Virus record (IMG/VR): IMGVR_UViG_3300020048_000009
Span: 147,679 to 211,678 of that record
DNA length: 64,000 bases
Reading direction: 5' to 3' (one strand)
Origin: a virus
Lineage: Duplodnaviria; Caudoviricetes
The translations under genes were made by a program, and so were the position numbers. Numbering within the stretch: the stretch's first letter is position 1; each line of letters begins with the position of its first letter. The notes under the pieces were generated by a model. The model had not been told where the DNA came from, did no database searches, and saw only the letters and a program-made list of their open reading frames with translations. Positions 1-18,397 of this stretch are shown here, piece after piece.

Positions 1-2
1 TG

Positions 3-491
3 TCTATAGATGATATTCTTAAGGCTTGTGAAATTATGCATGGTGAACAAGAAGGCTTTGTTCTTGTAGATAAAAACTTTAATAGAGTTAAAGTTAAGTC
101 TCCTTTCTATGTTACATTACATCACGCTAAAGATAATGGCCAATTTACTTCTGAAAAGGCTATTAGAATTATTCAAATAAATGAAGTAGATGAATTTTTA
201 ACATACTTCCCTGAATTTAAGCCTTTCTTTGATGAAATAATTGTTTTAGTAGATGATTATGTTTCAGATATGGCACAATGTTTATGTATTGTTTTAGATG
301 GTGTTGAATTTTTATCTAGAAAAGATATTGCGTTACAACTTAAATCACATAAAGCAGCCTGGTATGGTTTTATGGTTTTAGATAAAATTCTTAAACATGA
401 AGTATATCAAATGCCAAGAGATTGTTTTGAAAAGATGGATTCATCCAGAGCAGCAAAGTTTATAGGAGAAAAGTCAATTAAAGTGGCTTAA
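3..491 (+). CDS. T4 Rnl1-like RNA ligase, C-terminal part (5' truncated by window edge)
   Basis: Frame is open from base 3; EGFVLVD..RVKVKS matches nucleotidyltransferase motifs IV and V, followed by a helical C-terminal domain. Confidence 0.7.
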   Translation, partial: SIDDILKACEIMHGEQEGFVLVDKNFNRVKVKSPFYVTLHHAKDNGQFTSEKAIRIIQINEVDEFLTYFPEFKPFFDEIIVLVDDYVSDMAQCLCIVLDGVEFLSRKDIALQLKSHKAAWYGFMVLDKILKHEVYQMPRDCFEKMDSSRAAKFIGEKSIKVA

Positions 492-493
492 TT

Positions 494-1177
494 ATGGCAA
501 AAGAATTATATATATGGGGCGATCCACATTTAAATCATGATAATATTAGACGTTTTTGTGGGCGTCCCTTTCCTACGGTTAAGGAAATGAATGAAGCATT
601 GATTAGCAATTATAATGAGGTTGTTAATCCTAAAGATGATGTTATAATTGTTGGTGATTTTGCTTGGAGTGATCATAACCATTTTCTAGCACAATTACAT
701 GGTAGAAAAACACTAATAATCGGTAATCATGACAAAATGCCAGAAGCGGTACTTAGAAACTTTACTCAAGTTATTGGAACACCGACAAAACCAGGTATTT
801 TAGAAACATGTATTGCTGGACAAAAAATATCGTTTAGTCATTATCCATTATATTCATGGAATGCTTCATTTCATGGAAGTTGGAATATTCATGGTCATTG
901 CCACGGAAGATTAACAGAATTTGATGATCTTCTAAGAACAGATGCGGGTGTAGATTTATATAATTTCTATCCTGTTAATTTTGAAGTTCTAAAATTAAAA
1001 TTACAAAGTAGAGTTCCCGCTTGGAAGAAGAAAATGGAAGAAGTTCATCCAGAAGGTGATGAGACATCTTTATCTAAAAATAAAACAGAATCTTTAAAGT
1101 TTAAACAAATGTTTGAAGAACAAAAAGCTAAAAATACAAATCTACTTAAAGTAGACTATACATATAGAAAGGCTTAA
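494..1177 (+). CDS. calcineurin-like metallophosphoesterase
   Basis: GDPH, VGDF, GNHD and HGHCH motifs. Confidence 0.9.
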   Translation: MAKELYIWGDPHLNHDNIRRFCGRPFPTVKEMNEALISNYNEVVNPKDDVIIVGDFAWSDHNHFLAQLHGRKTLIIGNHDKMPEAVLRNFTQVIGTPTKPGILETCIAGQKISFSHYPLYSWNASFHGSWNIHGHCHGRLTEFDDLLRTDAGVDLYNFYPVNFEVLKLKLQSRVPAWKKKMEEVHPEGDETSLSKNKTESLKFKQMFEEQKAKNTNLLKVDYTYRKA

Positions 1178-1178
1178 A

Positions 1179-1853
1179 ATGGACACACCGACATATTACG
1201 ATAATGTATGTAATGAAGCATTAGATCTTCAAAAACAAATGAATTTAACAGACGTCCAAACCCTTCTTTATAATCATATTTGTAGGGGTGATTTCTATCT
1301 TAGGAATGAAGATGGCCAACATTTTTATGATATTAATAATGAAGGTTTCGGTTATTTTGGTGAACGTGCTTGGGTTAAGAGACAATTTAGTAAACTTGTA
1401 AATGCGGGTTTAGTAAAATTTGAGTCTTTAAGAGATTGCAGGTCAAAACAATGTACTTCTTGGGTTTGGTATTTACCTAAATTTAATTATAACGATTTGG
1501 TTGATGCTTGTTGCTATGTTACTACACATAATTTAGCAATGATCAAAGACCGTTTCAATCTCCCAGATGGATTTTCTAAAGTTGGTAAATATGGAGATTT
1601 AGAATTAATTAAGAACAATGAAGGTTATACTTTTAAGTATAAAGGCGAAGAAAGTATATATTCTTGGGATTATGATGGTAAAGGTATAAAAGAAGATTTG
1701 ACGGATATAACAGGACAACCAACATGGGAATCCGCTCAATATTATGATTCATTTTCTGAGATGTCGCATGATATTATATCGTTCATGGTTAATGACGGGT
1801 ATAAATTAAAAAATGTTAAGGGATATACACAAAAACGGAGGTTTAAAATCTAA
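1179..1853 (+). CDS. hypothetical protein
   Basis: 224-aa ORF tightly packed in the operon. Confidence 0.7.
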   Translation: MDTPTYYDNVCNEALDLQKQMNLTDVQTLLYNHICRGDFYLRNEDGQHFYDINNEGFGYFGERAWVKRQFSKLVNAGLVKFESLRDCRSKQCTSWVWYLPKFNYNDLVDACCYVTTHNLAMIKDRFNLPDGFSKVGKYGDLELIKNNEGYTFKYKGEESIYSWDYDGKGIKEDLTDITGQPTWESAQYYDSFSEMSHDIISFMVNDGYKLKNVKGYTQKRRFKI

Positions 1854-1854
1854 A

Positions 1855-2259
1855 ATGAGTAATGTAATTAAAATTCGAGTTGAAACATCACAAATAGTGG
1901 AAACATGTAAACAAGCGGTTGAAAAACTTGCTATTTATAAAGCTAAAAAATATGAAGAATTGCTTTTAGCTATGGTTAGACCAGTAGAATATAGTTTTTT
2001 TGGTTTAATAAAAACACAAAGCGCTGTTGATAGAGAAAAAGCTATTGAAATTATTAAAAATTGTGAATTTTATGACTATTATGAGCGTTATGCTGGAAAG
2101 GCAACCCAAATTTATTACGAATATAGAAGTCAATATGAAGGTCTTAAAGAATTAATGTTAAAATTAATTCCATATGCTCCTGATAGTACTGAAGGCTCAA
2201 TGCTTTTGCCGCTTGATGCATGGAATGAAATTTGTAATATTTCATTGATGAAAGTATAA
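1855..2259 (+). CDS. hypothetical protein
   Basis: ATG at 1855, right after the upstream stop, preferred over 1813. Confidence 0.7.
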   Translation: MSNVIKIRVETSQIVETCKQAVEKLAIYKAKKYEELLLAMVRPVEYSFFGLIKTQSAVDREKAIEIIKNCEFYDYYERYAGKATQIYYEYRSQYEGLKELMLKLIPYAPDSTEGSMLLPLDAWNEICNISLMKV

Positions 2260-2261
2260 CC

Positions 2262-2786
2262 ATGAAAACATTAGATAAATATGCATTTAAAAATGCTACA
2301 TGCGTTACAATGCAAACGTTGATTGGTGTTTCTACTAGAAGGTTTCCAGTAGATCACGGTAATTGTTTTTCTATTAAATGTGATAATAATATACAGTATA
2401 AAATTGTTAATTTTGTATTAGAAAATTTAGAAAGATTGGTAGAAAAAAAGATTATAAATTGGCCTATTAGAATTCTTCCAATTTCAGAAAGACACGCAGT
2501 AATTATAGATGAAAGAATTCCTGAAAAGTGGTATAGTAAAAAATATTGTGAAGTTTGCTGTCCGTTTGATTTATTACCTCATAATCAAAAAATGTCATAT
2601 GTTAGAAAATTATTGACTAAAGAAATTGAAGAAATTGAATGTCAAGATGGTTCTATTATAGTAAAAAGAGAATTTAAAACGCCGCCACAAAGAACATTAA
2701 AACCAGGATGGACTGTACAACAAGAAACTGATAGTGGTATTATATACTGTGATAGTATTCCGGTAAATTTAAAAAAGAAAATATGA
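2262..2786 (+). CDS. hypothetical protein
   Basis: 174-aa ORF in operon. Confidence 0.7.
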   Translation: MKTLDKYAFKNATCVTMQTLIGVSTRRFPVDHGNCFSIKCDNNIQYKIVNFVLENLERLVEKKIINWPIRILPISERHAVIIDERIPEKWYSKKYCEVCCPFDLLPHNQKMSYVRKLLTKEIEEIECQDGSIIVKREFKTPPQRTLKPGWTVQQETDSGIIYCDSIPVNLKKKI

Positions 2787-3094
2787 GAATTAATAAAATT
2801 ATATGTATACTTTTAGCTTTTTCTTTTATATGTGGATGTGCCACATATTTTGAAAGAAGTGAGTATCCTAGATATAACCAGTATTATCCTGCAACTAAAA
2901 GGGATTATGAAGTATTATCTACTGTAACACATGATATTATTTATGGAACAGGATCTCCTCACAATGTAGGGGGTGAAATAGGTGTTCTTTTGTCTCCGAT
3001 AATAATTCCATGTTTTTTAATAGATTTACCTATTTCTATAACATTTGATACGTTGTTTTTCCCTCTTGATTATTTCGATAAAAACTCAAACTAA
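2783..3094 (+). CDS. YceK/YidQ family (DUF1375) lipoprotein
   Basis: Signal peptide with lipobox FICGC; C-terminal IDLPISITFDTLFFP matches the family DLPxSxxxDTLxxP motif. Confidence 0.75.
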   Translation: MRINKIICILLAFSFICGCATYFERSEYPRYNQYYPATKRDYEVLSTVTHDIIYGTGSPHNVGGEIGVLLSPIIIPCFLIDLPISITFDTLFFPLDYFDKNSN

Positions 3095-3107
3095 AATATA
3101 AAACGTT

Positions 3108-3152
3108 GGTATATTTTAACCTCTATGTTATGTATAGTATTATACATAACAT
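3108..3152 (+). promoter_or_regulatory. putative early promoter GGTATAT-N18-TATAGT overlapping a 12-bp perfect inverted repeat
   Basis: GGTATATTTTAA at 3108; IR atgttatgtata(3125-3136)/tatacataacat(3141-3152). Confidence 0.5.
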
Positions 3153-3176
3153 TTCGTATTTATAAGGAGCAATTAT

Positions 3177-3530
3177 ATGGGTTACATGGGATTAGAGAAT
3201 TATATGGCATCTGATGAAGCATCAGATTTTGTTTGTACTGTTCTTGGAAGCATTGAAAAAGACTGCGAAAAACAACTTAAAAATAAAGCCAATGAGTATA
3301 ATACTCCAGGATATGTTAATATTGCTCTATTTGCTGAAGCATTTTTAAAGAATATTTCAATCTATTCAGATGATAAGCTATATAAGATTTTAGAGCAAGT
3401 AAAAAACAAGCTTGATGAACAAGTAAAAGCTATTAAGAAAATGGAATATTGGAAAGACCAACAAATGCATATTACAGCATTTAAACGGATGTCCAAAAAT
3501 ATTAAGAAAATTTTAGAAAATGCCTATTAA
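3177..3530 (+). CDS. hypothetical protein
   Basis: AGGAG RBS; 117 aa. Confidence 0.75.
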   Translation: MGYMGLENYMASDEASDFVCTVLGSIEKDCEKQLKNKANEYNTPGYVNIALFAEAFLKNISIYSDDKLYKILEQVKNKLDEQVKAIKKMEYWKDQQMHITAFKRMSKNIKKILENAY

Positions 3531-3541
3531 AAGGGCGTGTT

Positions 3542-3676
3542 ATGATAGTAAGCGATTTAATAGAACTATTAAAAAGTATGCCGCCAGATAAACACGTTAA
3601 AATATGTGCAGGCTATACTTTTTTGTTACAGGGTGTAACATGTTCTGACGATGATGATTATGTTGAATTATATTAA
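3542..3676 (+). CDS. small hypothetical protein (not in the ORF track)
   Basis: 44 aa, MIVSDLIELLKSMPPDKHVK..., a typical phage small-ORF N-terminus; fills the gap exactly. Confidence 0.55.
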   Translation: MIVSDLIELLKSMPPDKHVKICAGYTFLLQGVTCSDDDDYVELY

Positions 3677-3694
3677 TTAAATAAAGGAATAAAA

Positions 3695-4696
3695 ATGAAC
3701 GATAACAAACTTAATTCAATCGGTTTCTATACAATGTATGATGAGCGCGTCAGTAAAGTTTCAGCGACTTCACAAATGAAGCGTTGTGAACTTATTATTA
3801 CAGAATATTGTAATTTCAAGTGTCCTTATTGCCGTGGTCTTGCTGATTATATCTATGGTAATAGAAAGATCAAGCAATTGACATTTAAGGAAATTTGTTA
3901 TATCATCGATCAGTGGTGTAAGCTTGAGCCTTTGGAGAGTATCAGATTTTCTGGTGGAGAACCTACTCTTCATCCCGATATTGTAGATGTTATCAAATAT
4001 GCGAAGGCAAAAGGTATTAAGAATATCGCAATTTCTACAAATGGATCTTCTCCTCAGGAATTATATGATCAGCTGTTAGAAGCAGGTGTTAATGACTGCT
4101 CAATTTCATTAGATGCTTGTTGTGCAGAAGATGGCGATCATATGGCTGGTGATAAGAAGGGTGCTTGGGATATTTTAACAAAAAACATTGCATATATCGC
4201 TAAGAAATGTTATGTTACTGTTGGTGTAGTTTTAACTCCTGAAAATGTTGATAAAACTATTGATACTGTTAGATTTGCTCATACATTAGGTGTTGCCGAT
4301 ATTCGTATTATCAGTGCTGCTCAGTGGAATCAGCCAATTCCTAGACTTAATGAAATTGAACAGGAAATTTTAGAAGCACACCCAATTCTAAAATATCGTG
4401 TTGGACATTTCGCAAATGGTGTTAATGTTAGAGGTATTTCTGATACTGATAGCAAGAGATGCTCACTTGGTTACGACGACGCAATCGTAGCGGGTGAATA
4501 TGCGTTCCCATGCATTATCTATATGCGGGAAGGTGGTAAACCTATCTGTAAGGTGGGAGATGATATGCGTGAACGTAAGATAGAATGGTTAAAGACACAT
4601 AACACACATCTTGACCCTATTTGTAAAAAGAATTGCCTGGACGTGTGCGTTTCGTACAACTGCAAATACAGAGAAATTCATGGAGAACAAGCTTAA
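3695..4696 (+). CDS. radical SAM protein
   Basis: CNFKCPYC (CxxxCxxC), FSGGEP, STNG; extra C-terminal Cys cluster. Confidence 0.9.
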   Translation: MNDNKLNSIGFYTMYDERVSKVSATSQMKRCELIITEYCNFKCPYCRGLADYIYGNRKIKQLTFKEICYIIDQWCKLEPLESIRFSGGEPTLHPDIVDVIKYAKAKGIKNIAISTNGSSPQELYDQLLEAGVNDCSISLDACCAEDGDHMAGDKKGAWDILTKNIAYIAKKCYVTVGVVLTPENVDKTIDTVRFAHTLGVADIRIISAAQWNQPIPRLNEIEQEILEAHPILKYRVGHFANGVNVRGISDTDSKRCSLGYDDAIVAGEYAFPCIIYMREGGKPICKVGDDMRERKIEWLKTHNTHLDPICKKNCLDVCVSYNCKYREIHGEQA

Positions 4697-4985
4697 CATA
4701 GAAAGATTTCCAGCATTCGAATTTACCTTTGATAAATGGAGTGCCGGAAGTTTATATAACCTTGGCATAGATGGACATAAACATCTAATGTTTAGATATG
4801 CCATGCGTTATATTAGACAATATGCAATTGGTTATTGTCATGTTGAGTATATTCAAGTTCGACCGAAGCTTGATTGCGTAGCTGTTATGTTTTTCAAAGA
4901 CGAAGTACAATTTTGGACACATTTAACTTTTTCCGAGTTTAGAAGAATATTCCCGGAAGTTCCTAACGATGAAATTTATGAATAA
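4680..4985 (+). CDS. hypothetical protein
   Basis: ATG at 4680 overlapping the upstream gene end, preferred over 4611. Confidence 0.65.
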   Translation: MENKLNIERFPAFEFTFDKWSAGSLYNLGIDGHKHLMFRYAMRYIRQYAIGYCHVEYIQVRPKLDCVAVMFFKDEVQFWTHLTFSEFRRIFPEVPNDEIYE

Positions 4986-5379
4986 GAATTTAAATAATAT
5001 AGAATTTTTAAGAAAATTAGCATTTACTGATTTATTAACTAAATGCTATAATAGAAATTGGTTAAAGTATTGTTATGACAGTACTCTTAATGCTTCTACT
5101 TATTATTTATTCATAGATATTAAGAATTTAAGGGGTATTAATAATGATTCCGGGTATTTACATGGTGATACCACGTTAAAAAATACAGGAATATATTTAA
5201 AAAAATTCGGAGATGTTGTTCGTCTTGGTGGTGATGAATTTCTTGTTATCTGTAAAAATGAAGATATATATTTAAAGGCTTTATCCTATAAGTATAAGAA
5301 ATTTCATATTACAGGTGTTAAGAGTTGTAGTCCTATAACTCGAATAATCGAAAAATTAGATAAGAAGTTAAAAAAGTAA
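4969..5379 (+). CDS. minimal stand-alone GGDEF (diguanylate cyclase-like) protein
   Basis: TDLLTKCYNR, FIDIKNLRGINN, GYLHGD and RLGGDEF occur in canonical order. Confidence 0.85.
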   Translation: MKFMNKNLNNIEFLRKLAFTDLLTKCYNRNWLKYCYDSTLNASTYYLFIDIKNLRGINNDSGYLHGDTTLKNTGIYLKKFGDVVRLGGDEFLVICKNEDIYLKALSYKYKKFHITGVKSCSPITRIIEKLDKKLKK

Positions 5380-5420
5380 GGTATATTTTAATGATGATAT
5401 TACTTATAATATCATCATTA
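5380..5420 (+). promoter_or_regulatory. putative early promoter GGTATAT-N18-TATAAT overlapping a 14-bp perfect inverted repeat
   Basis: GGTATATTTTAA at 5380; TATAAT at 5405; IR 5389-5402/5407-5420. Confidence 0.55.
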
Positions 5421-5441
5421 AGTATTTATTAAGGAGAACAT

Positions 5442-5690
5442 ATGTTAATGATTATTGGTTGGTATTTTATTGGTTTAATTGGAATAACGTCATTTTTATG
5501 GCTTTTAGACGAATTACCGTCTTTAAACCAAATTATGGTAAAAGATATACTTACGGTATGTTTTTTTAGTTCATTTGGACTATTCGTATTTGCAGGTCAT
5601 ATATTATATTTTATTATATTTTTAGTTATTACTATTCAACCGATTTTAAATACAAAAATTGTTGATATTTTTAAAAGAAAGACAAAATAA
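5442..5690 (+). CDS. small membrane protein
   Basis: AGGAG RBS; two hydrophobic segments. Confidence 0.7.
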   Translation: MLMIIGWYFIGLIGITSFLWLLDELPSLNQIMVKDILTVCFFSSFGLFVFAGHILYFIIFLVITIQPILNTKIVDIFKRKTK

Positions 5691-5691
5691 T

Positions 5692-5856
5692 ATGAAAATT
5701 AAAACAATATATGATATTAAACCATTATGGTTGAGAAGAGTTTGTGTGATATTTTTAGGTGTTCCATGCCTTATATTTATAATGTTTGGTACAGCCTGTT
5801 GTGAATGCTGTTCAGGTGTTAGGCAATTTATTAAAATATGGAAAAATGAAGTTTAA
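5692..5856 (+). CDS. small membrane protein
   Basis: ATG at 5692; one hydrophobic segment. Confidence 0.55.
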   Translation: MKIKTIYDIKPLWLRRVCVIFLGVPCLIFIMFGTACCECCSGVRQFIKIWKNEV

Positions 5857-5908
5857 AATATAAAACAAGAATTAATGACTTATGCAACACTAACGGAGGT
5901 AAATTAAC

Positions 5909-7087
5909 ATGAGAAATCTAGCATCTATACAGACAGTTGATAAAATTATTGAAATTCCTAAAGCGAATACTATTGAATTAGTTACATTTAAAAATGTGGC
6001 TTGGCAATGTGTCGCTAAAAAAGGTGAATTTGTACCTGGTGGTTTATGCGTTTATTTTGAAATCGATTCTCTTTTACCCAAAGAAAATACAGCTTTTGCT
6101 TTCATGGAAGCTCGTAAATTCAGAGTTAAAACCGTAAAATTCATGACTGAATATTTATCACAGGGTCTTGCGTTACCTATTTCAGCTTTTCCCGAGCTTG
6201 ATATTGAAAAAATGGCAGATGGTTTAGACGTTACAGAAGTATTAAAAATCACCAAGTATGAAAATGATGCAGGTGATGATGAAGAAGCTGTAGAAGAAAT
6301 GTCTAAAAATAGAAAGAAATATGGAAAATTTAGAAATCTATTAATGAAGTATAAAATTGGTAGATTTATTGTTCGTACCTTTATCGGTAATAAACCTACT
6401 GGTAATTTTCCTACACACCTTTGTGCCAAAACCGATGAAACACGTATTCAAAATCTAGTTTCTTTATTTGAAAAGGCGAAGGGTATTGAATTCATTATAT
6501 CTGAAAAATTAGAAGGTCAATCTGGTACATATATTCTACAAAAAGGTAAATTCTTTAGAAAAAATACCTTTTATGTATGTAGTAGAAATAATTGCTATCC
6601 GACAAAGATTCCTAATAACTTCTGGTATATTGCAGATAAGTATAAAATCCAAGAAATACTTGAAAGTCTTATGAGAAGTTTTAAGGATGCAACACATATA
6701 ACACTACAAGGCGAAATTGTAGGACCAAAAGTTCAGAAAAATATCTATAAATTAGAAGATCTAGAGTTTTATGCGTTCAATATAGTTGTAACCTTTAAAA
6801 ATGGCGATGTTACAGCTTTTAACCCTAAATTTATAAAAGCCTTACTAGAAATAGTATATGAACATACAGTAAAGGCGGAAAATAAAATTACACATTGTCC
6901 TATTTTAGGTACATGTATCTTAGGTGTCACACCTGGATATAGAACAGTTGAAGAAATTTTACAATCTGCTGAAGGATGTTCAACTCTTTTCAATACACAT
7001 AGAGAAGGATTAGTTCTTAGAAACATGGGAATGCATTATTCTTTCAAAGCCGTATCAAATGCATATCTATTAAAACGCGGCTACTAA
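5909..7087 (+). CDS. RNA ligase, DRB0094 (Rnl2-like) family
   Basis: N-terminal LASIQTV..IP.A..IE..W.CV.KKGEF module; motif I SEKLEG, motif III LQGEIVG, motif IV REGLV, motif V SFKAVS. Confidence 0.9.
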   Translation: MRNLASIQTVDKIIEIPKANTIELVTFKNVAWQCVAKKGEFVPGGLCVYFEIDSLLPKENTAFAFMEARKFRVKTVKFMTEYLSQGLALPISAFPELDIEKMADGLDVTEVLKITKYENDAGDDEEAVEEMSKNRKKYGKFRNLLMKYKIGRFIVRTFIGNKPTGNFPTHLCAKTDETRIQNLVSLFEKAKGIEFIISEKLEGQSGTYILQKGKFFRKNTFYVCSRNNCYPTKIPNNFWYIADKYKIQEILESLMRSFKDATHITLQGEIVGPKVQKNIYKLEDLEFYAFNIVVTFKNGDVTAFNPKFIKALLEIVYEHTVKAENKITHCPILGTCILGVTPGYRTVEEILQSAEGCSTLFNTHREGLVLRNMGMHYSFKAVSNAYLLKRGY

Positions 7088-7122
7088 AATTGTATCTGTA
7101 GCAGATACAATATGGAGCAAAT

Positions 7123-7332
7123 ATGATAGATAAACATATATATATTGAAGGTTGGAGAGATTGGCCAAAAGAATCTTTTGGTGGATGGGCGCCTGGAAAT
7201 TATGAGTATTCTATTATTTGTAGAAAATGTAATGGTAGTTACGTTGGAAGCAAATATTCATACCATTGTTATCCATGCGCATTGAAACAATATGAAGAAG
7301 ATATTCAAAAGAATTTAGGAAGCGGAATATGA
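7123..7332 (+). CDS. small Cys-rich hypothetical protein
   Basis: CxxC...CxxC; GGAG RBS. Confidence 0.6.
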   Translation: MIDKHIYIEGWRDWPKESFGGWAPGNYEYSIICRKCNGSYVGSKYSYHCYPCALKQYEEDIQKNLGSGI

Positions 7333-7550
7333 AAATTAATATTAATAATAGATGTAAAGTTATTCTTACAGAAAATGCTCTTGAATCATTATGTTTTAGT
7401 AAAGATGAAATTAAAAGACTTAATAAAGATACAAGAGAATATACCGATGAATTATGGTCTTTAATGAACACTTTTGGTGAATATTTTAAAGCAGCTGGCG
7501 ATAACCAAATATTTGAAAATAATGAAATAGAAATTATAGAAGGTACATAA
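7329..7550 (+). CDS. hypothetical protein
   Basis: ATGA-type overlap with the upstream gene. Confidence 0.65.
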   Translation: MKININNRCKVILTENALESLCFSKDEIKRLNKDTREYTDELWSLMNTFGEYFKAAGDNQIFENNEIEIIEGT

Positions 7551-7606
7551 TGAGGGCTAAGTTATATTTAGTTCCAGATAATGCATTTTAAGGAGTGGTA
7601 AAAATT

Positions 7607-8095: not shown

Positions 8096-8118
8096 TATGA
8101 ACCTAAATAAAGGACAAT

Positions 8119-8552: not shown

Positions 8553-8573
8553 TATAGCAAAGATGCATTAATT

Positions 8574-8614
8574 GGTGTATAGATGTTGAAATATTGTATA
8601 ATGTATTTATACAA
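8574..8614 (+). promoter_or_regulatory. putative early promoter GGTGTAT-N16-TATAAT with an 8-bp inverted repeat
   Basis: GGTGTAT at 8574, TATAAT at 8597, IR ttgtataa/ttatacaa. Confidence 0.45.
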
Positions 8615-8652
8615 ATGGATATACCATTTATCATATCAGAGGAATATAAAAA

Positions 8653-9843
8653 ATGAAAACAGTAATTGGAAAGTATAATGAAGCAAAAATTTTTGCAACA
8701 ACAGTTGAAGCTTCATGTGAACAGCAAATTTTAGATTTATGTAATGAGTCTTGGGCGCAGGATTGTAATATCCGTATTATGCCTGATTGCCATTCTGGAA
8801 AGGGATGTGTAATCGGTACTACTATGACAATCAAAGATAAGATCGTACCCAATTTGGTAGGCGTAGATATTGGCTGCGGTATGCTTACTACTAAGTTCAG
8901 AGCATTAAAGCTTGATTTAAAGCAAGTTGATAGAACAATTAAGCAGGAAATTCCTATGGGTAGAAATATTCATAACGAAGCTCTTGTTGATTTTTCGCCT
9001 GAATTGAATAAGCTTTGGGCCGTTAAAAAGGAAATAGGTTTTGATAAGGTTTCTAGAAGTCTTGGTTCTTTGGGTGGTGGAAATCACTTCATTGAAATCG
9101 GAAAAGACGAAGATGATTGTTATTATCTAGTTATCCATAGCGGTTCAAGAAACTTTGGTAAGAAGGTAGCTGAATACTATCAGGGTAAAGCTGTTGATTA
9201 TCATAAACTTCTTACAGGTGATGCTAGAAAGGCTTTTATTGAACAATTAAAGTCAGAAGGTCGTCAAGATGAAATTAAAGATGCTTTAATTAAATATAAT
9301 GAGCAGTATAATACTGATTTGTGTTATTTAGAGGGCGCATTATTTAATTCATATTTAAACGATATGAAAATTGCTCAGAAGTTTGCTTCTTTAAACAGAT
9401 ATACTATCGCTAATATTTTATGTAAGGCTTTTCAGGTTGGACCAATAGAACAATTTGAAACAGTTCATAACTATATTGATACTGATAATATGATTCTAAG
9501 AAAAGGCGCAATTTCAGCTCAAAAGGATGAAAAGTGTTTAATCCCTATTAATATGAGAGATGGTTCTTTATTATGTGTCGGTAAGGGTAATGTTGATTTT
9601 AACTATTCTGCTCCTCATGGTGCAGGACGTTTAATGTCACGTACTAAGGCTAGACACGAGTTATCATTAGATGAGTTTAAGGATACAATGTCTAATGTAT
9701 ATTCATCTACTGTTGGAATGTCAACACTTGATGAAGCGCCTATGGCATATAAGCCAATAGCAGAAATCTTAGAAAATATTAAAGATACTGTTGATGTTAT
9801 AACACAGATTAAACCTATTTATAACGTTAAAGCAGAAGAGTAA
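8653..9843 (+). CDS. rtcB: RtcB family RNA 3'-phosphate ligase
   Basis: MPDCHSG, VGVDIGCG, GSLGGGNHFIE, HSGSRNFG, HGAGRLMSR, DEAPMAYK. Confidence 0.97.
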   Translation: MKTVIGKYNEAKIFATTVEASCEQQILDLCNESWAQDCNIRIMPDCHSGKGCVIGTTMTIKDKIVPNLVGVDIGCGMLTTKFRALKLDLKQVDRTIKQEIPMGRNIHNEALVDFSPELNKLWAVKKEIGFDKVSRSLGSLGGGNHFIEIGKDEDDCYYLVIHSGSRNFGKKVAEYYQGKAVDYHKLLTGDARKAFIEQLKSEGRQDEIKDALIKYNEQYNTDLCYLEGALFNSYLNDMKIAQKFASLNRYTIANILCKAFQVGPIEQFETVHNYIDTDNMILRKGAISAQKDEKCLIPINMRDGSLLCVGKGNVDFNYSAPHGAGRLMSRTKARHELSLDEFKDTMSNVYSSTVGMSTLDEAPMAYKPIAEILENIKDTVDVITQIKPIYNVKAEE

Positions 9844-9847
9844 AATT

Positions 9848-10081
9848 ATGAGAAGAGAATTCATTACAGAAATTTGTTCATGTTTTAAATGCCCTATTTT
9901 AGAGAATAGGGAAGAAATTAAAAGCTGTATTTTGGGTTCTGCTTGGTTTGAATATAAACATTGTTTTTATTTTGGTAATAGTTGTAAAACAGATTTCTCA
10001 GAAGAGCAAGATAATAAATTAAGACTTGAATTAGAGGTCTGGTTTAGAAATTGTCCAAAATGGAAATATATAGGAGAATAA
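9848..10081 (+). CDS. small Cys-rich hypothetical protein
   Basis: CFKCP and CPKW; packed in operon. Confidence 0.6.
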   Translation: MRREFITEICSCFKCPILENREEIKSCILGSAWFEYKHCFYFGNSCKTDFSEEQDNKLRLELEVWFRNCPKWKYIGE

Positions 10082-10084
10082 ATT

Positions 10085-10468
10085 ATGAAAAAATTCTTTA
10101 AAAACCTTTTTATTAAAATTGGTGTTATTAAAAAAATTGATAAAAGTCAAACAATAGAAGAAAGAGAACAGGAATTAGTCAAGAAAGTAAATGATATTCT
10201 TCTTGAACCTGAGAGTATTGATACAATGATTCCCCCGTGTAAGAAATGTATTCATTACAAGGGGTATGATTTAAAATCATTACGGCCAGACTGTATTAGA
10301 CCAACCGGCGATAGAACTATCGTAAATGATTATGAAAATGGTATTAGTAGTTCTATTATTGATAGAATTCATAGAGAATGTTGTAGAGAAAGAGAAATAT
10401 CATCTGAAAAATATAGAATTAGATGTGGTCCGTGTGCACTTTTCTTTAAAGAAAAGGAAATAAAATAA
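10085..10468 (+). CDS. hypothetical protein
   Basis: CKKCIHY...C...C...CGP metal-binding pattern. Confidence 0.65.
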   Translation: MKKFFKNLFIKIGVIKKIDKSQTIEEREQELVKKVNDILLEPESIDTMIPPCKKCIHYKGYDLKSLRPDCIRPTGDRTIVNDYENGISSSIIDRIHRECCREREISSEKYRIRCGPCALFFKEKEIK

Positions 10469-10470
10469 TT

Positions 10471-10656
10471 ATGACTAATGTAGAAAAAATGGCTAAAATC
10501 TTAAAAGATGAAGGCGTAACACATTTTAATATGTTTTTACCTTCATGTCCAAAGGATGCTTCAGAAGAATATAAAGCTGGTGAATTTTTAAGAATGTATA
10601 AAAATATGAACAGTGGTAAAACAATTCATGGTGTTGAAGGATTCGATTTTTGGTAA
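10471..10656 (+). CDS. small hypothetical protein
   Basis: Packed in operon. Confidence 0.6.
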   Translation: MTNVEKMAKILKDEGVTHFNMFLPSCPKDASEEYKAGEFLRMYKNMNSGKTIHGVEGFDFW

Positions 10657-10659
10657 GTT

Positions 10660-10998
10660 ATGAATATTAAAGACTTACCTAAAGATGCATATGCTAGAAT
10701 AATAAGTACAAGTTTAAGTATTTATAAGAGAGCAGAATTTGTATATAGAACAGATGAGGATAGTTTGCTTACGCCTGGTACAGGTTTTCCAATATTTACA
10801 GGTTTTTTTAAAAAGATACCAGAAACATATAATGATTTTGAAATAGAAATCATAAGTAAAGAGGAATTTAAGAAGGCTGATGTTTATAATAGACCTAAAA
10901 AGCCATTAAAATTACTTGATAGTCGTATAACATTACAAGAGTGGAATAATTTATCAAAAGAAGAAAGATGGCCAGATTTATATGAAAAAGAATTATAA
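10660..10998 (+). CDS. hypothetical protein
   Basis: Packed in operon. Confidence 0.6.
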   Translation: MNIKDLPKDAYARIISTSLSIYKRAEFVYRTDEDSLLTPGTGFPIFTGFFKKIPETYNDFEIEIISKEEFKKADVYNRPKKPLKLLDSRITLQEWNNLSKEERWPDLYEKEL

Positions 10999-11332
10999 AT
11001 ATGTAACACCACTAGAAGCATTTAGACTTGGGTATGAATATGAAACGACATGTGTCTTTTGTAAGAGAAAAGGTTTGACTAATATACATATGCATCATAT
11101 AGTACCTAGAGCAAAAGGTGGAAAAGAAGTAGCTCCTACCTGTAGTGATTGTGAAGGATTTATTCATAATACTTGGAGTCATAATGAACTTAGAGATACA
11201 TATAATACCGTAGAAATTATCAAAAAAGACGAGAAATATCAAAAGTTTCTTAAATGGCTTTTAAAACAGAAACCTGAAAAGAGTTTTAAAACTATTAGAA
11301 ATAATAATAGACCAAAAGGAAAATATACATGA
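10982..11332 (+). CDS. small HNH endonuclease
   Basis: CVFC...HHIVPRAKGG...TCSDCEGFIH. Confidence 0.85.
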   Translation: MKKNYKYVTPLEAFRLGYEYETTCVFCKRKGLTNIHMHHIVPRAKGGKEVAPTCSDCEGFIHNTWSHNELRDTYNTVEIIKKDEKYQKFLKWLLKQKPEKSFKTIRNNNRPKGKYT

Positions 11333-12117
11333 AGACAGTTGTTTTAGGTAATGGATATTTAGGTTCAGAATTTAAAGATCAAGGTTTTACTGTCTTAGGA
11401 AGAGACGAATTTGAAGTAATAAAACTTCCCAGGGATCAACATAAATATTTTGATAAAATATTATCTGAATATGATGTTATTATTAATTGTATTGCAACAA
11501 GTAATACTAGATTCTGTGAAGAGTATTTTGAAGAAGCATATTTTACAAATTGTCAAATTCCTGCATATTTAAGCACTTGGTGTAAGAAAAATGGTAAAAA
11601 ATATGTTCATATTTCTACTGGATGTTTATATGATAAGAATAATATCCCACAAAAAGAAACAGATTTTATAGCAGCACATTGTAACTATACTCTTAGTAAA
11701 TGGATGGGTGAAAAAGCATGCCAACCTCAAGATTTAATCATACGCCCACGTTTACTTTTTGACTATAAAGATAATCCTAAAAATTTATTATTAAAACTTA
11801 AAAAATATAACAGACTTACTAGAGAATTAGATAGCGCAACTAGTACAAGGACTGTAGTACAGGCTGTTACACATTTACTTAAAGCCGAACAAAGTGGAAT
11901 ATTTAATGTTGCATGCGAAGGTTATATTAGTATGGCAGAAATAGGAACTTTACTAGGAAAAACGACTATAGAAGAAGTTTCAATAGACGATGTTCGTAAA
12001 CAACAGAATTTATATATTGTTAATACAATAATGGATATATCAAAATTAAAACAATTCTATACTCCTTCTGATATTAAAGAAGAAATTGAAATAATGAATA
12101 AAGGTATTAAAACATGA
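11329..12117 (+). CDS. NAD-dependent epimerase/RmlD-like nucleotide-sugar reductase (extended SDR)
   Basis: GNGYLG Rossmann motif, HISTG, YTLSK (YxxxK). Confidence 0.85.
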   Translation: MKTVVLGNGYLGSEFKDQGFTVLGRDEFEVIKLPRDQHKYFDKILSEYDVIINCIATSNTRFCEEYFEEAYFTNCQIPAYLSTWCKKNGKKYVHISTGCLYDKNNIPQKETDFIAAHCNYTLSKWMGEKACQPQDLIIRPRLLFDYKDNPKNLLLKLKKYNRLTRELDSATSTRTVVQAVTHLLKAEQSGIFNVACEGYISMAEIGTLLGKTTIEEVSIDDVRKQQNLYIVNTIMDISKLKQFYTPSDIKEEIEIMNKGIKT

Positions 12118-12254
12118 AAAAAATTATTGTAGTGGGTAGATTTTTGGTTGCAGATACAACTAATAAAAATGGTTCATATTCCAGAATATATGATAAGGAA
12201 TATGTACATTTTTTAAAAACCTCGGTTAATAGTAGAGAGAAAAACAAAAAATAA
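12114..12254 (+). CDS. small hypothetical protein (not in the ORF track)
   Basis: 46 aa, MKKIIVVGRFLVADTTNKNG...; ATGA overlap with the upstream stop and ends 1 nt before the next ATG. Confidence 0.55.
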   Translation: MKKIIVVGRFLVADTTNKNGSYSRIYDKEYVHFLKTSVNSREKNKK

Positions 12255-12255
12255 T

Positions 12256-12990
12256 ATGAATACACAAGATGCAGAGTATATAAATACGACAATAAAAGAA
12301 GAAGGATTTGATTATTGTTTTGATGGATATTCTAGTTTTGAAGATATTAAAGATGAACGTTTTCATTCTTTAAGACAAAAATATCTAAATGCTAAAAAAG
12401 ATCTAAAACAATATATTCAAGTAAGTTTACCTAATTGTGGTGTTCCAGAAGGAATAGATATTGAAGCTGAATTATGGAAAGCTTTAGGTGAATCTATGAA
12501 AGAAGAAGCAAAAAAAGAAGATTTAGAATTTTTAGAACAGTTAGAAAAGTTTTATAAAAGAACAACATATAAAGGTGAGATAACAGAATTAAAACCTAAT
12601 CAAGTGTTTGTGTTCGGTTCCAACACACAGGGGCGTCATGGAAAAGGAGCAGCATTATTGGCTAAGGAGAAGTTCGGAGCTATCCAGGGGCATCCTGAAG
12701 GCTTCCAGGGTCAATCCTATGCTATAATAACAAAAGACTTAACCAAAACAGTCCACCCGTCTGTTTCTGAAGAAAAAATAATAGAACAGATACAACGATT
12801 ATATGAATTTGCTAATGTAAATAAAGATCACGAATTTATTGTTGCATATAAGGGAAATTCGTATAATTTAAATGCGTATACATCACAACAAATGGCAGTT
12901 ATGTTTTCAAAATTTGATATTCCTGAGAATATTGTTTTTGAAGAAGAATTCGCCAAATTAATAGAAAAACAACAAAAAGAAAAGGTATAA
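12256..12990 (+). CDS. two-domain protein; C-terminal A1S_2505-like phage domain
   Basis: ITELKPNQVFVFGSN..GRHGKGAA..A..FGA..G..EG.QGQSYAI motif. Confidence 0.7.
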   Translation: MNTQDAEYINTTIKEEGFDYCFDGYSSFEDIKDERFHSLRQKYLNAKKDLKQYIQVSLPNCGVPEGIDIEAELWKALGESMKEEAKKEDLEFLEQLEKFYKRTTYKGEITELKPNQVFVFGSNTQGRHGKGAALLAKEKFGAIQGHPEGFQGQSYAIITKDLTKTVHPSVSEEKIIEQIQRLYEFANVNKDHEFIVAYKGNSYNLNAYTSQQMAVMFSKFDIPENIVFEEEFAKLIEKQQKEKV

Positions 12991-12991
12991 T

Positions 12992-14080
12992 ATGGATAGT
13001 AAATTATTCATTCCAAAGAAAATAAAAGTAGGGTTTAATAATAGAAGCGATACCTATACAGGTAAGCTTGGATATGTAATTTATTGGGATGCTAAAGGCG
13101 TTCTTCGTAAAGTTAATTCTTGGGAAGGTTGGAGATCTAAGGAAATTGAACCTCAAGAGTTTAATAATGAACCCATGGAAGGTTTCGTTTTAAATCGTGA
13201 TGTTGGTGGCGGAAGACGCTCATATTATTCATGGGATGCACGTATAGAAAAGGTTAGAGTTTATGATCCTAGAGGATTTGAATTCGAAATTTCTATTCCT
13301 AATTTGTTGTTTATTCTACAAGAATGTACTTCTACTAAAGGTAAAGGCATTGAGGGTGAAATGGTATATTCATGGAATGGTCCAGAATTAGTGCTTTTAC
13401 CTGTTTCATGTAAAGAGTATAAGGAATGTCTAAATTATACAGAATATCAGAAATGTAAGTTCAGCGCTAAAAACTTAAAGGTCGGTTTGACATATAGAAC
13501 TAAGAAAATGGAAGATTATGTTTATATGGGACAATATGTCTGGACACCTTGCTATGGTTCATCATATGGTAAAAAATGCCATATATTTGGACAATATGAA
13601 ATAAATCAATATAGTAAGAAACCATATACAAATTTTAGAGCTACTACTTCTACAGATTTCTTAGCAGAGCAAGTTGGTGATGCAGTAGATCCTACATTCG
13701 CAGACCTATTTACAGCATTAGAAAAAGAAGATGGATATGCTACATGCACTAGTATTGTAGTAAAAAAACCTGAAAATCGTTATAGCAGCAGAGATAATTA
13801 TAATAAATGTGGAATTTTCTATAAGAATGAATATTATATTGGAAGTCTTTCACATGATTATAAATATCCCAATAAGGATTATAGTAAACAGGGTTCATAT
13901 AAATATGAAGTCGAATTAAATAAAAAGGTTTCAATTGTTGATGGGGGTTTAGTAGAAAAAATAATTAAAGAACCCATTAAAATTGAATGTACAGATCTTA
14001 CAGCAGAAGGTATTACCTGTGGAGCGCTTATCGCGACAAATTCAAAAAATAAAGAAAATCATATCGTATACGTATACTAA
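12992..14080 (+). CDS. conserved phage protein of unknown function
   Basis: IPKKIKVGF..R.DTYTGKLGYVIY..KGVLRK..SWEGWR and RVYDPRGFEFEISIPNL blocks resemble a recurrent phage family. Confidence 0.65.
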   Translation: MDSKLFIPKKIKVGFNNRSDTYTGKLGYVIYWDAKGVLRKVNSWEGWRSKEIEPQEFNNEPMEGFVLNRDVGGGRRSYYSWDARIEKVRVYDPRGFEFEISIPNLLFILQECTSTKGKGIEGEMVYSWNGPELVLLPVSCKEYKECLNYTEYQKCKFSAKNLKVGLTYRTKKMEDYVYMGQYVWTPCYGSSYGKKCHIFGQYEINQYSKKPYTNFRATTSTDFLAEQVGDAVDPTFADLFTALEKEDGYATCTSIVVKKPENRYSSRDNYNKCGIFYKNEYYIGSLSHDYKYPNKDYSKQGSYKYEVELNKKVSIVDGGLVEKIIKEPIKIECTDLTAEGITCGALIATNSKNKENHIVYVY

Positions 14081-14093
14081 GGAGAAATAAAAA

Positions 14094-14525
14094 ATGACAC
14101 AAAATGATATAAAAATTGATGGATTATTGCAGAAAATTGCAGATCAAAAGAAAAAGTTAGGGCCAAAACCTAAATCAACTCTTATTACAAACGGTGTTCT
14201 ACAAACACACACTAAGACATATAATATTAATGTGAGTGGAATACAGCAATTAGTAGAAGCTTATGCTGACCTACTAAAGATTAAGCAAGAACATTCATAT
14301 ATGCAAGATGCAATGGATATTCTTAACGTTAAATCAGTTGGATATGATATTGGTGGTTATTCTATTACGGATTGGATGGAAGATATTAAGAATAAAGTAG
14401 CAGCCGTACAATGGAATGAACGTAAGCGTGAATTAGATAAGACTGAAGAAAAGCTTAATCAAATGGTTTCTGAAGATGTTAAGACATCAAAAGCTCTTTC
14501 TGATATTGAAAATCTACTTCAATGA
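14094..14525 (+). CDS. coiled-coil hypothetical protein
   Basis: AGGAG RBS; heptad-like pattern. Confidence 0.7.
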   Translation: MTQNDIKIDGLLQKIADQKKKLGPKPKSTLITNGVLQTHTKTYNINVSGIQQLVEAYADLLKIKQEHSYMQDAMDILNVKSVGYDIGGYSITDWMEDIKNKVAAVQWNERKRELDKTEEKLNQMVSEDVKTSKALSDIENLLQ

Positions 14526-14764
14526 TAAAAAATCAAATTAATATTAAATATGGAATTATAGTCACAAAAAATGATGAACCCTATCCTAAAAGGGTTCATC
14601 ATTTTTGTGGTTATGAAGCTCCACCTGAAATATCAGATATTCAACATCTAATCTATGAGTTAATGTATGATAAAGAATTTAATTATCCAGATTTATTACT
14701 TAATTATACATTAGCATTAGCTAAACCCGATGTAGTAGAATATTTTAAAAAAGAACTAGAATGA
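14522..14764 (+). CDS. hypothetical protein
   Basis: ATGA overlap. Confidence 0.6.
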   Translation: MIKNQINIKYGIIVTKNDEPYPKRVHHFCGYEAPPEISDIQHLIYELMYDKEFNYPDLLLNYTLALAKPDVVEYFKKELE

Positions 14765-15084
14765 ATAAAAAATTAATAGCATATGATATAACCGGATTAC
14801 AAAAAGAAATATCTATTGGCGATGAAGAAGATTTTTCAAATATCCGGTGCCAGAGATGTAATTGTGTATTAGTGATTAAAAGTGGATATTGGCATAATAC
14901 AGCCGTATGCCCAATATGTAATAATCAAAATTCAGAGTTTTATTCAAATGAAGAAGAAATAAAAAAAACATCTGAATATATTAACACTTTAATTAATGAC
15001 CTATATTATTATAACAATCTATTAAAAGTTATTACTGATAAAAATAAAGTTAGAGAAAGAAATAAAAATATTATAATACCATAA
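14761..15084 (+). CDS. Zn-ribbon hypothetical protein
   Basis: CQRC...CPIC. Confidence 0.6.
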   Translation: MNKKLIAYDITGLQKEISIGDEEDFSNIRCQRCNCVLVIKSGYWHNTAVCPICNNQNSEFYSNEEEIKKTSEYINTLINDLYYYNNLLKVITDKNKVRERNKNIIIP

Positions 15085-15115
15085 GGTGTATTAGTTTATT
15101 ACATTTTAATATAAT
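15085..15115 (+). promoter_or_regulatory. putative early promoter GGTGTAT-N18-TATAAT
   Basis: Same spacing as the 3108 and 5380 sites. Confidence 0.5.
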
Positions 15116-15121
15116 ATTTAT

Positions 15122-16120
15122 ATGAATGAATTACTAACAAGAGATGATTTTAGAGAATCCGTTTTTAAAAGAGACGGATTCAAATGTCTTTTTTGTGATT
15201 GTACTGAAAATTTAGATGCGCATCACATTATAGAACGTCGTTTATTCACAGATGGTGGATATTATATTGATAATGGAGCAACCCTTTGTCAAAAACATCA
15301 CTTAATGGCAGAATCTACTGAATTAACTTGTACTGAACTTAGAGAAAAAGCTAATATCAAAACGATAGTTTTGCCTGAAGATTTTTACAGCGATTGTAAT
15401 TATGATAAATGGGGAAATATTTATATTGGCCAATTGCGAACAAAGGGGCCGTTATTTTTTAATGAAAGCGTTCAGAAAATATTAACTGGTAGTTTTACAG
15501 ATTTTGTAAAATATCCTAGAACATATCATTTGCCCTGGTCAGAGTCTAAAACTGATGATGATAGAACACTGACAAATGTGGATCATTTTCTTAATGAAGA
15601 AGTAGTTGTTACAGAAAAAATGGATGGTGAAAATTCCACTCTTTATAATAATTATTTCCATGCTAGAAGTTTAGATGGAAATAGTCATTGGACACAAAAT
15701 TGGTTAAAGAATTTTCATGCCTGTTTTAAATTTGATATTCCGACTGGTTGGCGTATTTGTGGCGAAAATGTATATGCCAAACATAGTATTAAATATGAAA
15801 ATCTTCCTTCATATTTCTTCTGTTTCTCTATTTGGACCGATAGAAATCTCTGTTTATCCTGGGATGATACTCTAGATTGGTGTAAATTATATGAAATTGA
15901 ACATGTTCCAGTTTTATACGAAGGTATTTTTGATGAAGAAGTTATTAGAAACTTACCTTTAAATAAAGAAAAGCAAGAGGGATATGTTATTCGTAAACGA
16001 AAAGCTTTTGCTTATGGTGAATTTTCAAAATCTATTGCAAAATTTGTAAGAAAAAATCATGTACAAGATACTGTACATAATTGGAAAAGCAGTAAAATTG
16101 AAGTTAATGGTTTAGAATAA
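15122..16120 (+). CDS. HNH nuclease-RNA ligase fusion
   Basis: N-terminal VFKRD..CLFC..LDAHHI..N..LC..HH; C-terminal KYPRTYHL, TEKMDGEN, CGEN, EGYVIR, KFVR. Confidence 0.85.
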   Translation: MNELLTRDDFRESVFKRDGFKCLFCDCTENLDAHHIIERRLFTDGGYYIDNGATLCQKHHLMAESTELTCTELREKANIKTIVLPEDFYSDCNYDKWGNIYIGQLRTKGPLFFNESVQKILTGSFTDFVKYPRTYHLPWSESKTDDDRTLTNVDHFLNEEVVVTEKMDGENSTLYNNYFHARSLDGNSHWTQNWLKNFHACFKFDIPTGWRICGENVYAKHSIKYENLPSYFFCFSIWTDRNLCLSWDDTLDWCKLYEIEHVPVLYEGIFDEEVIRNLPLNKEKQEGYVIRKRKAFAYGEFSKSIAKFVRKNHVQDTVHNWKSSKIEVNGLE

Positions 16121-16122
16121 AT

Positions 16123-16290
16123 ATGATTAATTTTAAAAAAATATGGAATATATGGGCAAAAGCGTTAGGCCCAAAAGCTTCTGATAATGATAAAGAAGCC
16201 GATTATATTGCTATAATTAGAACAGTAATCTTATTGATATATATTATAACAAATATTGTAATTATGGGTGGTGTTTGGAGACATTGGTAA
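16123..16290 (+). CDS. small conserved phage membrane protein (not in the ORF track)
   Basis: 55 aa, W..WAKALG.KA...D.EAD.IA.IRT...IITN....G..RHW, a pattern seen in T4-like phages. Confidence 0.7.
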   Translation: MINFKKIWNIWAKALGPKASDNDKEADYIAIIRTVILLIYIITNIVIMGGVWRHW

Positions 16291-16294
16291 TAAT

Positions 16295-16585
16295 ATGAAT
16301 GATGAAATAAAAGTTATATTAGCTGCAGGACTTATTCCTACAGACAGTATTGTTAGAAAAATTACTGGAACATACAAGTATAAAATATCAAGACAAATTA
16401 AAATTTATCCTGATAATAATGGTAAACCAGAAGTAATAGATGCAAAGGATGGTAGTGCTTTCTTGATTTCATGTGAAAACGTTAGATCCGACATCAGCTG
16501 TGTTTCTGGAACTTCTGAATTAGTTTGGTTAACAACTGAAGAAGATTTACATTCATGGTTAGCAGAAAGAATAGATAGGGATTAA
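16295..16585 (+). CDS. hypothetical protein
   Basis: Start 16295 follows the 16290 stop. Confidence 0.65.
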   Translation: MNDEIKVILAAGLIPTDSIVRKITGTYKYKISRQIKIYPDNNGKPEVIDAKDGSAFLISCENVRSDISCVSGTSELVWLTTEEDLHSWLAERIDRD

Positions 16586-16587
16586 AT

Positions 16588-17052
16588 ATGAAAATAATTT
16601 TTGTAGATGTAGATGGTGTTTTGAATTGTAAGAATACTACTGATACTGTCATGGGCGATGATGGTCGTAGATATGATGGCATAGATTCAGATAAAATTCA
16701 ATTATTAAAAGAAATAATTGATAAAACTGATGCTTATATTATTTTATCTTCTACCTGGAGATTATATGATACGTTTACAGAATACCTAGAGGAAAAACTT
16801 GGTGACTATAAAGTCAGAATAAAAGGTATTACTCCAAGATCAAAAGCTTTTACCTATACCTATAGATTTAGAGAAATTCAAAACTGGTTTAATGAAAATG
16901 ATACTCGGGATATTGTTAATTATATTATTTTAGATGATATTGATGAAGAAATGGTTGAAACTTTTGGAGATCATTATTTTAAAACAGATGTTGATATCGG
17001 ATTAACCAGAGAAATCACAGATAAATGTATAGAGTATTTAAATAAGGAATAA
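16588..17052 (+). CDS. HAD-superfamily phosphatase, HAD_SAK_2 (RNA-repair) type
   Basis: IIFVDVDGVLN, IILSSTWR, YIILDD, GLT. Confidence 0.85.
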   Translation: MKIIFVDVDGVLNCKNTTDTVMGDDGRRYDGIDSDKIQLLKEIIDKTDAYIILSSTWRLYDTFTEYLEEKLGDYKVRIKGITPRSKAFTYTYRFREIQNWFNENDTRDIVNYIILDDIDEEMVETFGDHYFKTDVDIGLTREITDKCIEYLNKE

Positions 17053-18355: not shown

Positions 18356-18397
18356 TATAATTGTATCTAGTATGGATACAATAGGAGTATTATAAGT

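Follow-up and report, generated by a model that had tools for sequence, protein, structure and literature searches.

The window analysed here, which is the final 64 kb of the 211,678-bp IMG/VR viral contig IMGVR_UViG_3300020048_000009, carries genes of four distinct families of RNA ligases: Rnl1, Rnl5, RtcB and a fusion of an HNH endonuclease domain with an Rnl2-like adenylyltransferase (hereafter HNH-ligase). These ligases, all with intact active sites, are found in one genome with nearly every known RNA-end accessory enzyme. Window and upstream flank together probably make up a toolkit for RNA repair and tRNA maintenance that is unusually complete and would mend tRNAs cut by host defences. 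Such a counter-defence role would agree with the one generally presumed for phage genes of this kind (PMC7824862). It should be emphasized that toolkits of this type are already known from giant phages; the present one is not a new kind of system but a very rich case, among the fullest collections of RNA-repair genes in a phage of such size.

The contig (~29% GC) is 84% complete according to CheckV, and up to 16% of the genome may be absent. It belongs to an uncultured jumbo phage with a genome of about 212-250 kb. A megablast search of the 17-kb ligase region against 50,697 phage records gave zero matches, and this phage is therefore without close cultured relative. Gene families were searched in Pfam, PHROGs, NCBIfam and PDB, folds were compared by Foldseek and tRNAs were called by ARAGORN. 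The open reading frames (ORFs) named in a first-pass annotation of the region all turned out to be real: they lie on the + strand at the positions given below, have family matches far beyond chance and keep their catalytic motifs.

The Rnl1 gene (384 aa, genome 147015-148169) starts 663 nt upstream of the window, which holds its C-terminal part on the + strand (1..491; positions 3-491 encode the last 162 aa). The whole protein matches PF09511 (RNA_lig_T4_1, E 2.5e-14; 54.1 bits versus a cut-off of 28.3), phrog_562 (E 1.2e-42) and T4 Rnl1 (PDB 2c5u, E 1.4e-12). Motifs I (K97, EKVDGS), IV (E239-G240, EGFV) and V (K252/K254, VKVKS) are all kept in the alignment with T4 Rnl1, which reaches residue 322 of 384 with an identity of only about 27%. 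The score for the NCBIfam equivalog TIGR02308 is 71.1 bits versus a cut-off of 242. Judged from these matches, the gene is a distant member of the T4 RnlA family, in which the C-terminal domain confers specificity for the anticodon loop of tRNA.

The next gene, only 2 nt past the Rnl1 stop, encodes a calcineurin-like metallophosphoesterase (494..1177, + strand) matching phrog_547 (E 6e-44) and Aquifex aq_1665 (1xm7, E 5e-9), without any match in the Pfam search. Its motifs GDxH, GDF, GNHD and GHxH are all kept, and it is a candidate healer of 3'-phosphate or 2',3'-cyclic-phosphate ends. A conserved two-gene module made of Rnl1 and this phosphoesterase is unsupported, the record lists being disjoint among the best matches listed for each. 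In T4, Pnk and Rnl1 repair tRNA against the PrrC anticodon nuclease. The phage studied here has in common with T4 an Rnl1-family ligase with the KxDG, EG and KxK motifs and the notion that broken tRNA is first healed and then sealed, whereas no Pnk kinase-phosphatase was found in the contig and the calcineurin-like phosphoesterase adjoins Rnl1 instead. The following ORF (1179-1853) belongs to no family of Pfam, PHROGs or NCBIfam and gave weak atlas leads only.

The second ATP-dependent enzyme is a nick-sealing RNA ligase of the Rnl5 type (DraRnl/NgrRnl; 5909..7087, + strand). It combines an N-terminal OB domain (PF21189, residues 4-91, E 1e-20) with a C-terminal adenylyltransferase (PF09414, residues 194-382, E 3e-19), has no C-terminal accessory domain and matches NgrRnl (5cot) across both domains (E 8e-41). 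Its motifs K200 (EKLEGQS), EGLVLR and FKAVS align to K170, EGLVFK and FKAIS of NgrRnl. Domain order and motifs are thus common to the phage protein and to the Rnl5 of Naegleria gruberi and Deinococcus radiodurans. However, the phage protein differs from them by an insert of roughly 35 residues between the domains, and it scores under the NCBIfam TIGR02306 equivalog cut-off (118.7 versus 151 bits).

RtcB, the GTP/Mn-dependent ligase that joins 3'-P (or 2',3'-cyclic-P) to 5'-OH RNA ends, is encoded at 8653..9843 (+ strand; PF01139, E 5e-62, 210.9 bits; phrog_1075, E 3e-137). The metal ligands and the GMP-accepting histidine are all kept: D72, C75, N143-H144, H162 (HSGSR), H272 (HNY) and H322 (PHGAGR). 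According to PMC4604427, many RtcB enzymes do not require Archease. Between the Rnl5 and RtcB genes, directly after Rnl5 (7090-7116), lies one of two near-identical hairpins (TTGTATC-loop-GATACAA). The other precedes a radical-SAM/SPASM gene (18361-18387), and the pair is the sole one in the contig. Each hairpin is directly 5' of a Shine-Dalgarno GGAG and a start codon, and the two may be a shared translational operator.

The HNH-ligase (15122..16120, + strand) is composed of an HNH domain (about residues 1-76), a conserved linker and a nucleotidyltransferase (NTase) domain (about residues 130-332), without C-terminal or OB accessory domain. It matches PF09414 (E 7e-33) and, over its full length, phrog_24030 (E 2e-124), while the HNH half matches PHROG HNH families (E 5e-8 and weaker) and the HNH domain of IscB (E 4e-5). 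In 30 homologs, C22, C25, H34, H35, N51, C56 and H60 of the HNH domain are invariant, as are K166, D168, G169, E215, E286, G287, K307 and R310 of the ligase. The former provide the catalytic His, the Asn and the Cys/His zinc site of a beta-beta-alpha-Me nuclease, the latter represent NTase motifs I, III, IV and V. An AlphaFold2 model (pLDDT 91, pTM 0.86) has an NTase fold which is, among the best Foldseek matches, about equally like those of NgrRnl, TbREL1, T4 Rnl2 and Rnl3. The protein stops about 20 residues past motif V, the C-terminal nick-sensing domain of Rnl2 not being present, and the NCBIfam Rnl2 profile does not match it. From its domain content, it is best classed as an Rnl2-like NTase fused to HNH (phrog_24030) and not as a member of the T4 Rnl2 family proper. 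Furthermore, the HNH-ligase and Rnl5 genes are not recent paralogs (BLASTP E 0.012). The family is very large, with at least 7,952 sequence clusters at E <= 1e-10, nearly all unnamed, and the fusion occurs in the unrelated jumbo phages SCTP-2, RsoM2USA, the CcrBL9 group, ME3 and HGTV-1. The same HNH-ligase is also indexed from a 274-kb contig. No experimental study of the family was found in the papers searched, where the only mention is in a 2021 review (PMC7824862).

Downstream, a stand-alone HAD phosphatase of the 'Swiss-army-knife' (SAK) type (16588..17052, + strand) matches PF18143 (HAD_SAK_2; E 6e-26, 91.8 bits versus a cut-off of 27.5) and keeps the D7-x-D9 (DVDGV) motif I, SST and DD. 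It is a candidate RNA 3'-phosphatase. A linkage between HNH-ligase and SAK-HAD is absent from the contexts of the two nearest homologs.

The first-pass annotation described the four ligases as mechanistically different. The four families stand, but they represent two chemistries only, since Rnl1, Rnl5 and the HNH-ligase are all ATP-dependent enzymes that form lysyl-AMP, whereas RtcB differs: it uses GTP, forms His-GMP and activates the 3'-P. The phage also encodes its own NAD-dependent DNA ligase. Because of this, the RNA-ligase-family genes are not needed for replication and do not replace a replication ligase.

The repair kit is larger than first annotated, with KptA/Tpt1, RlaP, Thg1-like and Pth2-like genes upstream of the window and a CCA-adding enzyme elsewhere on the contig. 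The KptA/Tpt1 RNA 2'-phosphotransferase (genome 128763-129317, + strand, E 5e-51) keeps its R-H-R-R residues. Further downstream are RlaP (genome 134166-135236, + strand, E 4e-21), a Thg1-like 3'-5' polymerase (genome 138352-139134, + strand, E 4e-29) and a Pth2-like gene (+ strand), which has one in-frame TAG and lies beside a suppressor tRNA(CUA) at 140.2 kb. The CCA-adding enzyme, with an HD domain, is located at 32 kb (E 2e-18). ARAGORN placed 25 tRNA genes at 83-93 kb, in an array at genome 83394-93081, and the tRNA(CUA) apart from them. This array includes an 85-nt tRNA-Lys(TTT) and tRNAs with uncommon anticodons (Phe-AAA, Ser-ACT, Arg-ACG and Ile-TAT). In the window itself, a second calcineurin-like phosphoesterase (20529..21287, + strand; PF00149 Metallophos, E 2e-15; phrog_1649, E 2e-33) had been counted among the repair genes, although it lies beyond the end of the interval (3-17052) to which it was assigned. 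It directly follows an IMPDH/GMP-reductase gene (PF00478, E 4e-95), and its membership in the RNA kit is doubtful. Both phosphoesterases are tied to RNA by proximity only.

In the proposed division of labour, RtcB would directly join 2',3'-cyclic-P or 3'-P to 5'-OH ends, the kind of ends that metal-independent ribotoxins produce. The three ATP-dependent ligases would join 3'-OH to 5'-P ends, produced by metal-dependent nucleases such as Toprim tRNases. T4 Rnl1 and Rnl2 seal the 5'-P/3'-OH ends left by the latter with no need of healing (PMC12445682). Each ATP-dependent ligase would probably have its own RNA context, i.e., single-stranded loops for Rnl1 and duplex nicks for Rnl5 and the HNH-ligase. 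Lost nucleotides would be restored at the 3' end by RlaP, an enzyme adding 1-2 nucleotides to damaged RNA 3' ends (PMC12776372), at the 3' CCA by the CCA-adding enzyme and at the 5' end by the Thg1-like enzyme. KptA/Tpt1 would remove 2'-phosphates, SAK-HAD and perhaps the phosphoesterase beside Rnl1 would remove 3'-phosphates, and Pth2 would release stranded peptidyl-tRNA.

The nearest relative found, IMGVR_UViG_3300042905_002309 (hereafter G001; 248 kb, complete), shares RtcB (66% identity), KptA (51%), RlaP (42%), Rnl5 (33%) and an AAA_28 kinase (69%), and also encodes a SAK-HAD. In G001, Rnl5, a T4-Pnk-type kinase, RlaP, RtcB and KptA are all located within 13 kb, and this clustering argues for joint action of these genes. 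The G001 kinase (153 aa), which matches T4 Pnk (1ly1, E 5e-9), is encoded directly upstream of RlaP, a place held in our contig by a SLOG protein. No Thg1 homolog was found in the last 80 kb of G001, the part compared. Since G001 has the core without Rnl1 and the HNH-ligase, the phage of the window has added ligases to a shared core.

RNA-repair toolkits of jumbo phages, for example those of Burkholderia BcepSauron/BcepSaruman and Xanthomonas XacN1, were described by Iyer, Anantharaman, Krishnan, Burroughs and Aravind in 2021 (PMC7824862). They can comprise any mix of RtcB/Rnl1/Rnl2, HNH-Rnl2 fusions, SAK-HAD, RlaP, Thg1 and KptA, and the same authors already inferred specialisation rather than redundancy of the ligases. 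In comparison, the phage studied here has four families in a genome of about 212-250 kb, plus Thg1, KptA, RlaP and Pth2 within about 40 kb, but no recognisable polynucleotide kinase. Among ten published genomes tested for ligase families, that of LR756501 (uncultured huge phage, 735 kb) has all four, with a mini Rnl2-like ligase, Rnl5, Rnl1 and two RtcB. However, its Rnl2-like copy is not fused to HNH, and the Rnl1 ORF is a short one of 270 aa. LR745208 (485 kb) encodes an HNH-ligase, Rnl5, RtcB and two further PF09414 ligases, without Rnl1. Both genomes are 2-3.5 times larger than that of the phage of the window, and they are not annotated. SCTP-2 and BcepSauron have three families each (Rnl5, Rnl1 and RtcB for BcepSauron).

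The RNA-end genes are spread across about 40 kb and do not form one operon. The view that the ligases are distributed over separate promoters rather than gathered in one cassette holds for its second part, as they are scattered among unrelated genes. As for the promoters, a scan for sigma-70 and terminator consensus sequences yielded 122 sites versus 135 expected; in DNA so rich in AT it is uninformative and cannot judge the question, but a strand-specific motif that precedes the run of each ligase supports separate promoters indirectly. Over the whole contig, the composite motif GGTRTAT-N12-24-TANAWT has 25 occurrences on the + strand and 3 on the - strand, versus 4.3 +/- 2.1 in Markov shuffles. 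It is usually found 40-80 nt before a gene start and never in - strand intergenic DNA. GGTGTAT alone is intergenic in 16 of its 42 occurrences, versus 3.4 expected (P about 6e-8). On the + strand, the motif is present at window -1834 ahead of the Rnl1 gene run, at window 3108, at 5380..5410 (GGTATAT-N-TATAAT) ahead of the gene run ending in Rnl5, at 8574..8602 (GGTGTAT-N-TATAAT), 79 nt before the RtcB start, and at 15085..15115 (GGTGTAT-N-TATAAT), 37 nt before the HNH-ligase start. There are about 20 more + strand sites elsewhere on the contig. As a sequence pattern, this promoter-like element fits separate transcription units without proving them, and it may be the marker of one temporal gene class.

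Several observations weigh against a complete and coordinated repair system. The claim that every end chemistry is covered was not borne out: in the 84%-complete contig, neither a polynucleotide 5'-kinase (no AAA_33/T4-Pnk-type match at E <= 0.01, and no homolog of the G001 kinase at E <= 1) nor a 2H (cyclic) phosphodiesterase was found. As the searches revealed no kinase, the sequence at hand does not give the ATP-dependent ligases a complete route to 5'-OH ends. These ends would be handled by RtcB only, which would leave the other three ligases with 5'-P ends alone, e.g., those of Toprim tRNases. Moreover, the substrate of the HNH-ligase, as far as its sequence tells, may be RNA or DNA. The ligases are interspersed with unrelated genes, i.e., two radical-SAM enzymes (one at 3695-4696), a GGDEF-like ORF (4969-5379; 136 aa, covering just the first half of the domain), an RmlD/epimerase-like reductase (11329-12117), the IMPDH/GMP-reductase family gene (19475-20527) and a free HNH, and their order is not conserved in relatives.

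These data could be explained by independently acquired, partly redundant accessory genes, some of them acting outside RNA repair, without any coordinated layered system. The phosphoesterases could act on nucleotides or signalling molecules, Rnl1 could serve in tail-fibre attachment like T4 gp63, and the HNH-ligase could be DNA-directed or a selfish nick-and-reseal element. The variable ligase content of relatives (Rnl5 and RtcB only in G001), the genes lying between the ligases and the quite different neighbourhoods of the closest HNH-ligase homologs (72-78% identity) would agree with this explanation. So would the label of phrog_562 ('RNA ligase and tail fiber protein attachment catalyst') and the distribution of the phrog_547 phosphoesterase family, which is present in 1438 phage records, mostly without Rnl1. 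In the same way, the second phosphoesterase, besides adjoining the IMPDH/GMP reductase, is weakly like an anti-phage phosphoesterase and YfcE. However, many RNA-end enzymes are packed in one 40-kb stretch, G001 has a conserved core of them in a tight cluster, the phage has a dedicated DNA ligase and the active sites are all preserved, so that independent acquisition is considered unlikely.

Within the RNA-repair toolkit, the HNH-ligase could be a self-contained trim-and-seal enzyme. HNH nucleases, by family chemistry, leave 3'-OH and 5'-P ends. The HNH domain would trim damaged termini (e.g., a 2',3'-cyclic-phosphate or a 5'-OH nucleotide), the fused ligase would seal the RNA, and RlaP or Thg1 would replace the lost nucleotide. 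If so, the HNH cut would make exactly the ends needed by the fused ligase and neither kinase nor phosphatase would be required. This would fit the absence of polynucleotide kinase here and that of AAA_33 matches in the HNH-ligase phages ME3 and LR745208. Such an activity is put forward as a speculation of rather low probability.

That the ligases mainly mature or recycle the RNAs of the phage itself (the array of 25 tRNAs, small RNAs resembling tRNAs, and perhaps transcripts that are spliced or permuted) instead of countering host toxins seems very improbable: the large tRNA cluster with uncommon anticodons, the CUA suppressor tRNA and the Thg1-like and CCA-adding enzymes, which are tRNA-maturation enzymes by family, speak for it, but ARAGORN reports no intron-containing or split tRNA, Rfam gives zero matches in the window, four ligase families exceed the needs of any known maturation pathway, and KptA, RlaP and RtcB are typical repair-associated genes.

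Other genes of the flank are worth mentioning. Two candidates for the missing polynucleotide kinase were rejected. The first is the AAA_28 kinase (genome 137810-138355), the sole small N-terminal P-loop kinase, which matches Pfam AAA_28 and a PHROG thymidylate-kinase family. In fold, it comes nearest to the ribosylnicotinamide-kinase domain of NadR (TMq 0.71) and to thymidylate kinases. It overlaps the Thg1-like gene by 4 nt, a pairing absent in 12 of 12 related loci. Together with an NMNAT-type cytidylyltransferase-like protein with a C-terminal P-loop (genome 123496-124482) and with KptA and the DNA ligase, which are both NAD-dependent, this NadR-like kinase suggests a phage-side NAD supply. 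The second candidate, an ORF directly upstream of RlaP (genome 133476-133955) examined as a decayed Pnk, encodes a SLOG/YAcAr-DprA-like protein. Three ankyrin-repeat proteins are encoded near RlaP (genome 130415-131863 on the - strand, 131953-132501, and 132727-133461 on the - strand) and a NIF3/DUF34 protein downstream of KptA (genome 129570-130418). The phage also encodes a full-length DnaJ with J, zinc-finger and C-terminal domains (genome 144735-145838) and a thioredoxin (genome 143349-143669).

Just upstream of Rnl1, a 146-aa HD protein (genome 146357-146797, window -1321 to -881) matches the RelA/SpoT hydrolase domain TIGR00691 (E 2e-17) and phrog_990. It was rejected as an RNA-end phosphatase, being a RelA/SpoT-type small alarmone hydrolase that could degrade (p)ppGpp/ppApp. 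Toxic alarmone synthetases pyrophosphorylate the CCA ends of tRNAs, and such hydrolases could reverse that modification.

The finding itself does not change the current picture of phage RNA repair. Defences that cut tRNAs (PrrC, RloC, PARIS, OLD, Cas13, Cas12a3 and others) are increasingly recognised as a major branch of bacterial immunity and, to our knowledge, T4 Pnk/Rnl1 is the only such repair pathway tested in a phage. The genes of the phage described here lend themselves to studying whether phage ligases specialise by nuclease and end type, and the phage draws attention to the very abundant, uncharacterised HNH-ligase family.

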